DNA of 64,000 nt. It comes from an uncultured delta proteobacterium (GTDB lineage: Bacteria; Desulfobacterota; Binatia; UBA9968). The stretch is taken from the NCBI GenBank assembly GCA_963804165.1, contig CAWDPO010000003.1, positions 192,001-256,000 on the forward strand, in the 5' to 3' direction. The notes beneath the pieces were generated by a model. The model was not told where the DNA came from. It saw only the letters and a program-made list of their open reading frames with translations, and ran no database searches. Made by a program: the position numbers and the translations under genes. This document shows, one piece after another, positions 3,903-36,862 of this stretch. The first letter of the stretch is position 1, and each line of letters begins with the position of its first letter.

Positions 3903-4872
3903 TTACCGCCTCGTCTGCTGAAAGAACCCTTCCCGTTCCAACTCTTGCACGAGCGAGGCATCGACGAAGTTGGCTGGATTGGCGCCGCTAGCTTCGCTGC
4001 CTAAACCTTTGAGCAATCCTTTGACACCTTCGAGATCGACGCCGATGGATTTTTGTAGATGCCTCTGCCCGTAGCTGCGGTAGACTTCGGCCAGTATTTC
4101 CGGATCGTCGAGGCAGACGTATTTGGCGAGGATTTTTAGCGCGGCATGTTTGTCGTTGCGAGTTTCTTGCACGGCTTCGTAATAGGCACGTAGGATACGC
4201 AGCACAGTGTCACGACTGCTTTTGATAAATGACCGCCGCGCGCTCATCGGCGAGTTGACGTAGGGAATGCCATAGTCGGCGGCGTCGACCAGCTCGCGCA
4301 GTCCCATCTTGATGCCGCGCAGGTTATTCGGCGCGGAAATCATGCCGCCGTCGACGAAGCCTTTGGCCACCGCCGCCAGCATTTCCGGCATGCCGCCGCG
4401 AATGCCCAACACCGCAAGATCTTTGTTGCGCTGCAGTCCCCACCGTTCGAGCAACAAACTCAATACTAGATCGGGTGAATCACCGAGGTTGCTCACGCCG
4501 ATCTTTTTGCCTTTGAGATCTTCGATCCGGCGGATTTCGGGTTTGGTCATCAGCGAAAAAACAGCGACATTGATGGTATTCGCAATGATCGCGAGGTCGG
4601 CGCCGCGAATTGTCGAGCGCACCACGGAAGACGGGGAGGCGCGGACAAACTGTATTTCGCCGGCGAGCATCGCCTCGATGGCGACACCACGAATGTAGGT
4701 TAACTCCACCTCGACGCCGTGCTTGTCGAAAAAGTTTCGGTCCTTAGCGACCCAGAGCGGCAGCATGGCGCCGCTGATGGAGCTGTAGGCAATGCGGAGG
4801 GGAGCGGCGTGGGCGTGCCACCGGCAATACCGCAGCGAGTGCGAGTATGGCCGATAGCGTCAACTTTAAAGC
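3903..4872 (-). CDS. ABC substrate-binding protein, SsuA/NMT1/THI5-like (frameshift near 5' end; start approximate)
   Basis: LRIAYSSISGAMLPLWVAKDRNFFDKHGVEVEL...AMLAGEIQF...DLKGKKIGV. Confidence 0.82.
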
Positions 4873-4960
4873 TCGATGGGTGGTCATCGGTTGGCGCGCT
4901 TGGGAATATTATCGGGGTGGATTCGCAAAGAGCACCCATGTCCTATCTTTTCCCCGCCTG

Positions 4961-5065
4961 GACTGTGTCGCAACTCGCACGATCATATGGGTGTCATGCT
5001 GAGCAACGCGAAGCATCTCGCATGGTGAGCTAATGACGAAGACGAGATTCTTCGCCTGCGGCTCA
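4961..5065. repeat. Left part of a REP/MITE-like palindrome interrupted by the IS110 element
   Basis: GACTGTGTCGCAA...TGTCATGCTGAG...GAAGCATCTC...GAGATTCTTCGCCTGCGGCTCA; resumes as GAATGACATTAAGACATAGTC at 6383-6403. Confidence 0.85.
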
Positions 5066-5084
5066 TCTATGAAAGCTTTGTCAA

Positions 5085-5271
5085 GGTATCTGTTAGTCAC
5101 ATATTGTTTTTTCTTCTCATGGTTTCGAATACACCAGTACTTATCGTCCGTGGCAAAGCGTACCCGATGTTATCGGACTCATCTATTCGCCGTCTAAAGC
5201 GGCAGAGAAAAATGCCACAGGGCTGTCGCAATCAGAATTCGGGTCTCAGTGGACCCATGAGCCGCGCGCGC
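5085..5271 (-). ncRNA. Putative bridge/seek RNA in the IS1111-type downstream non-coding end (boundaries approximate)
   Basis: Minus-strand RNA reads GCGGCUCA-hairpin(GGGUC/GACCC)-AUUCUGA, matching both target halves, then a second hairpin followed by AUAGAUGA, matching one donor half plus core. Confidence 0.75.
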
Positions 5272-6312
5272 TTAGCCCTGCGTGGACGACATCGGTTCGC
5301 GATAGCTTTCTCCTTTTTTCAACATCCAGAAACTCGCCTCCGCCAAGTGTCGGGCCACGGCCACAATCGCTTTGCCGTGCCCCCGTCTGGCTTTGACATT
5401 TTCATACAGCCGGGCAACGTGTCGGTACTCGCAGCGCTCGCGGTTGAGCACCGCGCTATTGGCCGCTTCGGTAAAGGCCCACTTCAGATAAAGATTCACA
5501 TCCTTTCTCACCCGCCCGTAGCGCACCTTGCCGCCACTGGAGTTCTCCCGGGGTACCAGCCCCGCGTAACTCGCCAGCTGCTCGGCTCGGCCAAAGCGCT
5601 CGATCGTACCGATCTCAGTCCAGATCACCACCGCCAACATCTCACCCACTCCTGGCTCGCTCTGCAAATAAGTCGTCTCGGCACAGGGAGCAAAGGCTTG
5701 GCGCATTTGGCCTTCAATGGTCTTGAGATTGGCCTGCACATGGTCGAGCTCGTCGAGCATCAATCGCAGCGCTTGTTGGGTGTGCGGTGGCAGCTTGGAG
5801 CAAAGCTCTTCGATGATCTGTCGGCCCCGCTTGCCAAAGGCGTCGCTGACGCCGTCGACCTTGAGCCCGTACTTCTCCAGAGTGGCGTGAATACGGTTCT
5901 TGAACTGGGTTCTCTGCTTGCTGAGCACCATGCGGGTGCGCGGCAGCTCGCGGGCATCACGAACCGCAGACGGCGCAATCCACACCGTCGGCAGGGTTCC
6001 GACTCTCTGCAAACGATTCATTCCCTTCGCATCGAGCTTGTCGCTCTTGTTCACGCTGCCGATCATCAGCTTGGCCAGTCGTGCGTTGACCAGTTGCGGC
6101 GATCCTTTCCCCGCCTCGATCTCATCGACTACCCAGTACCAGTTGCCCACGGTCTCAACCGCCACCGGGGTTCCCGGACTCCACTTGTTGGTGAAGTTCT
6201 TAATCGTTCCTCGACTATGCGCCAGTTTACACTCAAAGAGCTTCTGGCCTTGGTCATTTTCTACCCGCGCCCAGGTGTAATGCTTATGAACATCCAATGC
6301 GACGTATTCCAT
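5272..6312 (-). CDS. IS110-family DEDD recombinase/transposase
   Basis: ALDVHK, AVETVG, KSDKLDA (D-E-D-D) RuvC-like domain; PGVG and SYAGLVPRENSSGG (conserved Ser) Tnp domain; GGAGGAGG RBS. Confidence 0.96.
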   Translation of the reverse strand: MEYVALDVHKHYTWARVENDQGQKLFECKLAHSRGTIKNFTNKWSPGTPVAVETVGNWYWVVDEIEAGKGSPQLVNARLAKLMIGSVNKSDKLDAKGMNRLQRVGTLPTVWIAPSAVRDARELPRTRMVLSKQRTQFKNRIHATLEKYGLKVDGVSDAFGKRGRQIIEELCSKLPPHTQQALRLMLDELDHVQANLKTIEGQMRQAFAPCAETTYLQSEPGVGEMLAVVIWTEIGTIERFGRAEQLASYAGLVPRENSSGGKVRYGRVRKDVNLYLKWAFTEAANSAVLNRERCEYRHVARLYENVKARRGHGKAIVAVARHLAEASFWMLKKGESYREPMSSTQG

Positions 6313-6461
6313 TTGCGATTTCCTCCTCCAGCCGTCAGTCTATCTACCGACGCTGCGGATTTCATCGCTTTCATATTAATCAGAATGACATTAAGACATA
6401 GTCTCGTGACAAGGAAGGGGTTAAGACGATTTTGCGCAGAGTAGATTAATTGCTCGGGACT

Positions 6462-7208
6462 CTAAGCTGCAGCGCTGCTCGCGTCGTATTTCTGCTCTTG
6501 GACGACATAGGCCATGTAAATGCAGTCGGACATGACCCGGCGCATGTTGTTTTTCATCAGCTGGGCGTTGATGCAGGCTTCTTGCAGCTCTTTGGTGTCG
6601 GCGTATTTTTTCAGGATTTCTTTGCGGATCACGCCGTGCTCGACATCGACGTCGGCGTGCAGCTTGTAGAATGTCAAAGCGTCGTCCGGGAACCCATTTG
6701 TAGTGCTTACGAAAGGTATCGAGGTCGCGCGACATCGCTTTGGCGGTGTCGTCGCCTTCGGACACAGCGACGCCGAGCAGCCATGAAGTTTTAAATGCCG
6801 CGTTGGCGAAACTATCGACGGCGAACTTGACGCCGTAGAGCGGTTCGGAGTTTCTCACGAACTCGCGTTCCATTCCCAGACCGACGCAGACATCGAGCCA
6901 GTATTCGGGATGGGGCCCGTGTGATTTGCCGATCAGATCTTCGCCTTCCTCTTCGATGGCTTTCGGCAGCCACATGCGACGCACGTCGACGTGCGGGCAA
7001 TTATAGAGGATCGAATACTCTTTGATCGGTACTTGCTTGGTGAAGTAGTAGCGTTCCTTGGCCCAGCCTTGCAGCTGTTCTTGGTGCATTTGCCATCGCG
7101 AAAAATTGCTTCCCAAGGATGAGGCGGGCGCTGATGATCTTGGCGGTTTGCATCGAAAAAAGTCTGGATGAATTCATCGGGAGCGAGTTTGTGGTCGAGC
7201 TTGAACAT
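6462..7208 (-). CDS. PqqC/CADD/TenA-like heme-oxygenase-fold oxidase (2 frameshifts)
   Basis: Joined frames: MFKLDHKLAPDEF...HPWE...QLQGWAKERYYF...IEEEGED...HPEYWLD...AVSEG...FYKLHADVDVEHG. Confidence 0.8.
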
Positions 7209-15000: not shown

Positions 15001-15115
15001 GACTGTCTTAGAATGTCATTCTGAGGAGTATGCGACGAAGAATCTGGTTTTCTTTTTTACGAGGGTTAGGAGATGGATCGAGAAAGCAGATCCTTCGCTA
15101 GCGCTCAGGATGACA
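15001..15115. repeat. TGTCATTCTGAG-type REP-like palindrome (same family as the IS target)
   Basis: GACTGTCTTAGAA TGTCATTCTGAG...CGAAGAATCT...AGATCCTTCG...CTCAGGATGACA. Confidence 0.8.
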
Positions 15116-36831: not shown

Positions 36832-36862
36832 TGTCATTCTGAGGCGGAGCCGAAGAATCTGC
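36832..36862. repeat. TGTCATTCTGAG-type REP half copy
   Basis: TGTCATTCTGAGGCGGAGCCGAAGAATCTG. Confidence 0.7.

Follow-up and report, generated by a model that had tools for sequence, protein, structure and literature searches.

An unnamed IS1111-group insertion sequence with a predicted bridge (seek) RNA in an uncultured Binatia genome

The window analyzed here is a 64,000-nucleotide stretch from an uncultured delta proteobacterium (GTDB lineage Bacteria; Desulfobacterota; Binatia; UBA9968), taken from contig CAWDPO010000003.1 (positions 192,001 to 256,000 of the forward strand) of GenBank assembly GCA_963804165.1; unless stated otherwise, coordinates below are positions in this window. At 5066 to 6382 on the minus strand it very probably carries an intact, unnamed insertion sequence belonging to the IS1111 group of the IS110 family, together with a bridge (seek) RNA. 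The predicted RNA has a fold conserved among relatives with different guides, and both of its target guides covary with the sites in which the elements are inserted.

Element and recombinase gene

Counting one copy of the junction TCA, the element measures 1,317 bp from the TCA at 5063 to 5065 to the TCA at 6380 to 6382. The left junction reads GCGGC (5058 to 5062)-TCA-TCTAT (5066 to 5070), the right junction reads ATTAA (6375 to 6379)-TCA-GAAT (6383 to 6386), and six copies at 97 to 100% identity share these end bases. Inverted repeats of 9 bp, TATGAAAGC at the end downstream of the transposase gene (5068 to 5076) and GCTTTCATA at the upstream end (6367 to 6375), are set in from the junction bases; such subterminal repeats are 7 to 17 bp long in the IS1111 group (PMC11208160; this and the other papers cited are drawn on as excerpts).

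The sole long reading frame of the element (5272 to 6312, minus strand; stop codon at 5272 to 5274) is intact and encodes a transposase/recombinase of 346 amino acids with the Pfam domains DEDD_Tnp_IS110 (PF01548; E = 4.9e-13) and Transposase_20 (PF02371; E = 2.3e-21). The protein scored 233.6 bits against NCBIfam model NF033542, "IS110 family RNA-guided transposase" (cut-off, 140). Residues 251 to 260, GLVPRENSSG, contain the GL-P----S(t)G motif that, with a transposase of 330 to 350 amino acids, marks the IS1111 group (PMC11187229). Its only solved relatives are IS621 and ISCro4, which align mainly over the C-terminal domain (E = 3.6e-12). The non-coding region downstream of the gene is 206 nt long (5066 to 5271), versus 67 nt upstream (6313 to 6379). 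The element thus has every sequence feature of the IS1111 group that could be tested. An earlier note on this DNA had proposed an IS1111-type IS110 element bounded by TCA with 9-bp subterminal repeats, and the junctions, repeats, domains, motif, and downstream non-coding region all agree with that proposal.

The same genome holds six copies of this element (subfamily A), one of them cut by a contig end, and four copies of a sister element that is ~82% identical (subfamily B), plus one deleted derivative. All A and B copies have the same ends and lie at the same position within one hairpin repeat family. Read in transposase orientation, the sites are GTCATTC-TGA-GCC...GAAGAAT for subfamily A and GTCATGC-TGA-GCA...GAAGCAT for subfamily B. 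TCA stands at both junctions in all ten full A and B copies, except where the flank itself differs. At the window copy, guide 1 of the RNA described below pairs with the half of the interrupted repeat that, in transposase orientation, follows the element (5044 to 5062, minus strand), while the other half, GAATGACA (6383 to 6390, minus strand), pairs with guide 2 through its first four bases. The target that the earlier note had reconstructed for this copy, GCGGC-TCA-GAAT, was found uninterrupted twice elsewhere in the genome. Since both of these identical sequences carry a single TCA (TGA in transposase orientation), insertion duplicates nothing.

Conserved RNA fold

Relatives of the element at 48 to 92% identity were recovered from public genome contigs (21 loci with protein, 80 with protein alignment), all of them from uncultured Binatia, Nitrospirota, Chloroflexota, Rokubacteria, Acidobacteriota, and similar groups, and their 3' non-coding regions share a common scaffold. 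RNAalifold analysis of 27 sequences with different guides returned a layout in which a first stem (P1) overlaps the gene end and is followed by a 4-bp stem that is invariant (P2), an internal loop with both guide arms, and the hairpins P3 and P4; a further hairpin, P5, was added by eye. Over the 27 sequences, 92.8% of cells were paired, versus 34 to 41% with slid partners, and 19 of 28 pairs showed compensatory changes. None of 500 shuffles reached any of five measures. The earlier note, which had suggested the loop layout of a bridge (seek) RNA, named folding and guide-target covariation in homologs as ways to check it. Folding the window sequence alone gave the same stems as the alignment (z-score, -2.2), and the loop arms match opposite target strands and overlap at the core, as that layout predicts.

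The predicted RNA core spans ~120 nt (5163 to 5282, minus strand, as are all RNA features here), and its first stem covers the last codons and stop of the transposase gene. The target-binding module (5216 to 5282) consists of P1 (5282-5274/5224-5216), with compensatory changes in eight of its nine pairs, and P2 (5270-5267/5230-5227), which together enclose the guide loop. Guide 1, the 5' arm (CGCGGCUCA; 5258 to 5266), has the same sense as plus-strand GCGGC-T-CA and therefore pairs with the opposite strand of that target half. Guide 2, the 3' arm (5231 to 5239), reads AUUC followed by the UG core and then by AU, a handshake-like match to the donor and not to the target. Between the two guides lies the inner hairpin P3 (UGGGUC/GACCCG; 5240 to 5257), with compensatory differences between subfamilies A and B.

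The remainder of the RNA forms a donor module. The 5' donor arm position (AUUUUUCUC; 5205 to 5213) is homologous to the donor guide of distant relatives and is not complementary to the element's own end. It is followed by hairpin P4 (UGCCG/CGGCG; 5188 to 5204) and by the 3' donor arm (5178 to 5187), which reads AAUAGA, the UG core, and then AG, matching the target (again handshake-like). Hairpin P5 (CCGAU/AUCGG; 5164 to 5176) had 73% of cells paired, in a part where the alignment is imperfect. Three guide strings that the earlier note had read from the minus-strand transcript past the stop codon, GCGGCUCA at 5265 to 5258, AUUCUGA at 5238 to 5232, and AUAGAUGA at 5186 to 5179, stand exactly where it placed them. 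In 5,000 mononucleotide shuffles of the first 130 nt of the RNA, a full match arose 17 times for guide 1, 23 times for guide 2, and 4 times for the donor arm.

One truncated relative (L032, at ~1501 to 2200 of a contig from an uncultured deltaproteobacterium) keeps the last 87 codons and the target loop and then continues into the 5' part of the element in inverted orientation; this arrangement suggests a rearrangement between two copies.

Covariation of guides and targets

A sequence anchor in the RNA allowed 57 of 108 sequences to be parsed, 42 of them with both ends located from the inverted repeat; 35 of these were unique and gave 27 distinct guide pairs. Many of the 51 sequences without this anchor carry a variant, UGAAUGCG. 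With a wider anchor that yielded 35 guide pairs, 25 of the 108 sequences were still unparsed and 23 more lacked one identifiable end; these were all left out and represent contig ends, diverged repeats, or regex artefacts.

Both target guides covaried with their targets in both sets. Among the 27 pairs, guide 1 matched its own target at 5.33 of 7 positions versus 3.27 of 7 for the targets of others, and guide 2 at 3.78 of 4 versus 1.13 of 4 (0 of 20,000 permutations reached the observed value in either case; unique guide pairs, uncorrected for shared ancestry). With the wider anchor, the corresponding values over 35 pairs were 5.20 versus 3.36 of 7 and 3.77 versus 1.12 of 4 (0 of 10,000 permutations, on the same basis). 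Within a close clade of 11 elements, guide 1 matched 57 of 77 positions and guide 2 matched 43 of 44.

The plainest example comes from the two subfamilies in the Binatia genome itself. Guide 2 is AAUUCUGA in subfamily A versus AAUGCUGA in subfamily B, a change of one base from U to G (AUUC versus AUGC). All four B copies occupy ATGC sites and all A copies occupy ATTC sites; the inner hairpins of the two differ by compensatory changes. A GAAU that precedes the donor arm was also considered as the guide for ATTC and was rejected because the sister type keeps it unchanged although its site reads ATGC. Two sibling elements in one genome that differ by a single guide base and occupy two variants of one repeat amount to a natural retargeting pair for specificity.

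Core dinucleotide and handshake-like bases

TCA is common to donor and target in the window element, and the earlier note had accordingly proposed an RNA-guided recombinase with a 3-nt TCA core. Its IS1111 bridge RNA reading stands; the length of the core does not. Across 35 guide lineages, the target base beside the dinucleotide (in transposase orientation) is A in 26, G in 5, C in 2, and T in 2, and guide 1 follows it. The donor base at this position is constant across the family and differs from the target base in 9 of the 35 lineages. Furthermore, by eye, relative L058 (region ~2229 to 2420 plus the upstream junction) has CG for TG at both junctions and in both 3' RNA arms, compared with TG throughout in its relative L052, and is a natural example of core reprogramming. 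Because the neighboring base varies between target and donor, and L058 has changed the dinucleotide itself throughout, the sequences indicate that the shared core of the family is the dinucleotide CA on the plus strand (TG in transposase orientation). In the window, this would place the core at 5064 to 5065 and 6381 to 6382, with T5063 as a target base and T6380 as the element's own base.

The extra T of TCA would then, by analogy, be the equivalent of position 7 of IS621, a handshake position. In IS621, the two bases that follow each 3' guide act as handshake guides, which pair with the partner DNA after strand exchange (PMC11208158, PMC13626964). Corresponding bases were found here on both sides. 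In the target loop, the AU after UG is the same as the two bases that begin the donor in each of the 51 elements for which that end was found, and AU or AA matches them in 31 of 35 lineages when variant AA anchors are included. In the donor arm of the window element, the AG after UG equals the target's AG, and across 31 distinct RNAs the donor-loop dinucleotide matches the target at 40 of 62 positions (0 of 20,000 permutations). With each loop matching the other DNA partner after the core (the target loop the donor, and the donor loop the target), strand exchange in the window element would raise the handshake-like pairs from two to four, which may favor insertion. The IS621 rules of a dinucleotide core and handshake bases thus appear valid in an IS1111-type lineage of uncultured soil bacteria, judging from sequence alone.

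It is unlikely that the core here is really three bases long (TCA), with strand exchange needing identity at all three and the core longer than in IS621. The TCA at both junctions of the ten full A and B copies would fit such a core, as would the A (T on the plus strand) at this target position in 26 of the 35 lineages and the matching A that is always present in guide 2. Nevertheless, nine lineages have inserted where the target base differs from the donor's constant base, with guide 1 following the target; both junctions and both 3' arms of L058 carry an altered dinucleotide; and the donor-arm base after the core follows the target, as the handshake guides of IS621 do.

Some relatives carry UGAA for UGAU after guide 2, namely, L085, L080, L090, L097, L099, and L107 (Acidobacteriota) and L049, L056, L063, and L064. 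In the Acidobacteriota part of this subgroup the donor end starts with AA, a match, and in Pirellulales and Sedimentisphaerales it starts with AT, a mismatch.

Mobility and proposed mechanism

Two hexamers near the element ends suggest how the RNA may be expressed. An outward-facing TTGACA (5079 to 5084, minus strand) would serve as a -35 box only once the ends are joined in a circle, and TAATAT (6373 to 6378, minus strand) would serve as the -10 box, so that circularization would place a promoter of the form TTGACA-17 nt-TAATAT ahead of the gene. Within the integrated copy, no sigma-70-like site was found on the minus strand. Junction promoters have been described for IS621, ISEc11, and others, and by analogy with these two the window element would excise as a circle whose joined ends create a strong promoter. 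This promoter would drive the transposase gene and the ~120-nt bridge (seek) RNA, which begins at the last gene codons, on the same transcript. From what holds for the family, the RNA whose anatomy, conserved fold, and guide-target covariation are described above would be made, bound by the protein, and direct the reaction. In the target loop, the 5' arm would pair with one strand of GCGGC-T-CA and the 3' arm (AUUC-UG) with the other strand of CA-GAAT, while the second RNA module would read the element's own end through AUAGA-UG. Recombination at the shared CA would then insert the element into a REPIN-like hairpin repeat, in the 5' arm of the hairpin, with no duplication.

Four public sequencing runs, three of them RNA-library runs, were examined as contigs. 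The element or close relatives were present in soil and other metagenome runs, and no circle junction or empty-site read was found among the contigs of the runs examined. A contig joint from 5023 to 6380, with 8 other letters between, was considered as an empty site and rejected, as it appears to be a different repeat doublet.

The window copy is quite unlikely to be a dead relic, immobile, with guides that record a past specificity. Such a relic would fit with the lack of circle-junction and empty-site reads in these contigs, the extra 3' bases of one sister copy, the base missing before the start codon of one A copy, and a deleted derivative on contig C22. However, the window copy retains an intact reading frame and every functional motif, and five copies are 99.6 to 100% identical over 1.3 kb at different sites, which argues for recent movement.

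The derivative on C22 (28900 to 29698 of that contig; L011/L012) belongs to subfamily A and is internally deleted, with two pieces joined and ~230 bp gone; its site flank reads AAAT in place of GAAT. The most diverged A copy (A_C30; C30:69025 to 70351; 96.6%) carries substitutions that break the inner hairpin and P4, and its site is unlike the usual repeat on one side; it may be a decaying copy.

The repeat family that serves as target, GTCATNCTGA...GAAGN'AT, has 123 uninterrupted copies genome-wide. At the variable position and the facing position of the opposite arm, the bases are T/A in 46, C/G in 59, G/C in 17, and mismatched in one, leaving 122 compensated. An intact copy of the G/C variant lies next to the element (4993 to 5016, plus strand; a pattern match with 0 expected in 100 shuffles), inverted relative to the interrupted copy so that the two form a REPIN-like doublet. 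Other window copies lie at 15015 to 15043, 15090 to 15114, and 36833 to 36858. The repeats often occur as inverted doublets ~20 to 45 bp apart, like REPINs, and had no Rfam match. Related elements in Nitrospirota contigs (L017, L018, L020, L027, and L028) are inserted in the same repeat, which is therefore shared across phyla. The genome also has 18 matches to Y1_Tnp (PF01797), possible RAYT-type mobilizers.

Counterevidence and donor recognition

Several observations weigh against RNA guidance of this element. In addition to the shared ancestry left in the permutations, guide 1 tolerates many mismatches: A copies match 3 to 6 of 7 variable positions, and B copies match 4 to 5 of 7 at four sites. 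This tolerance lies away from the core. By hand count, 8 of 17 uninterrupted G/C-type repeats would fit the guide of the sister type better near the core. Rfam 15 gave no match in a permissive search of 4500 to 7000 or in a gathering-score search of the whole window. The three RNA-library runs yielded five pieces, 90 to 99% alike, on parts of the transposase gene or its flanks and none on 5163 to 5282, a result that is neutral on expression. Finally, a fourth guide, AUUAAUCA, was not found in the downstream non-coding region, where the best match was 5 of 8 (reached by 1,998 of 2,000 shuffles), and the 5' donor arm matches the window element's own end at 3 of 6 positions, compared with a non-cognate mean of 2.93.

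It is nonetheless highly improbable that the protein recognizes the hairpin repeat itself and that the non-coding matches are remnants or coincidence. That reading would fit the confinement of all sites to a single structured repeat family, the frequent mismatches of guide 1, and the absence of the non-coding region from the public RNA-library contigs. Against it, the two arms of a loop with covarying stems carry the matches in opposite senses, the matches track unrelated targets in 27 to 35 lineages, elements 82% identical in DNA split between repeat variants as a single guide difference predicts, and the RNA of other IS1111 members is experimentally essential and programmable (PMC11187229).

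With RNA guidance as the preferred reading, donor recognition appears uneven between the two arms. In all 30 distinct cases, the 3' donor arm is identical to the tetramer that separates the inverted repeat from the core; five different tetramers are represented, and the match in non-cognate pairs is 31%. Two of 35 elements, L065 and B_C17 (whose donor arm contains an additional base), were unparsed in this comparison. Across the family, the 5' donor arm is weakly positive (mean, 3.67 versus 2.93 for non-cognate pairs). In distant relatives, this arm ends in CA and matches the element end at 4 to 5 of 6 positions, and in the window's clade it is conserved as ..UUCUC-U and matches at 3 to 4 of 6. 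When partners for this arm were sought by eye in the RNA, the target half-sites, and the inverted repeat, none covaried between A, B, and L015 to L028. The earlier note had already remarked that the guide for the other donor arm is not evident, and the chance-level search result agrees with it.

In many IS1111 orthologues, the bases that bind the donor sit in a multi-loop and not in a simple internal loop (PMC11208160), a topology that the donor part of the window RNA shares. A tentative and rather doubtful explanation is that the window's clade has lost the guide for one donor arm and that this end is recognized by the protein through the 9-bp subterminal repeat. If so, the element would have a natural three-guide bridge RNA with donor recognition split between RNA and protein, and the lost donor guide would explain why IS1111-type elements keep long subterminal repeats. 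That one of four guides is apparently degenerate in this clade bears on end recognition in the IS1111 group.

Relationship to other IS110 family elements

Among the closest known systems are the IS1111-group elements ISEc11, ISPa11, ISKpn4, and ISPst6 (PMC11187229), which also have a long non-coding region downstream of the transposase gene and subterminal inverted repeats. IS1111-group elements with a seekRNA share the 330- to 350-amino-acid transposase with its GL-P----S(t)G motif. In their seekRNA, as in the window RNA, two short segments match opposite target strands and overlap at the crossover, with the top-strand match 5' of the bottom-strand match. ISPa11, like the window element, targets repetitive palindromes (PMC11187229), although the target of the window element is another repeat. 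A close named relative was not found; the best matches in a plasmid collection were ~32% identical in protein.

IS621 and ISCro4 (PMC11208160, PMC11208158, and PMC13626964) share the same two protein domains with the window element, with protein similarity confined to the C-terminal domain. Their RNA, like that of the window element, has a target loop in which a long 5' guide and a short 4-nt 3' guide flank a hairpin, with both guides covering the core dinucleotide and handshake or handshake-like bases after the 3' guides. A circle-junction promoter, predicted in the window element, and insertion into repetitive palindromes are further points in common. In contrast, the window RNA lies 3' of the gene rather than 5', with the guide order relative to the gene reversed, the core is CA rather than the CT of IS621, and the inverted repeats are 9 bp rather than 2 to 3 bp. 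The donor part of the window RNA also differs from that of IS621 and ISCro4 in that it does not form a simple internal loop and no 5' guide can be recognized in it. On the plus strand, the guide geometry is that of IS621 (5' arm in the same sense as left target plus core, 3' arm complementary to core plus right target). Transcription of the gene and RNA, however, runs from the opposite strand, in agreement with the reversed guide order of IS1111 compared with IS110 types (PMC11187229).

ISPpu9 and ISPpu10 of Pseudomonas putida (PMC12288879) also insert site specifically into REP sequences at an invariant dinucleotide, AG in their case, and form circles, as predicted for the window element. Unlike the window element, they are of the IS110 group, with the RNA upstream and without subterminal repeats, and ISPpu9 is equipped with a strong promoter of its own as well as accessory small RNAs. 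As far as can be told, the window element is an unnamed addition to a kind of element known since 2024, and since this kind is well known, the element itself adds little; compact, diverse orthologues of such systems are of practical interest as recombinase tools.

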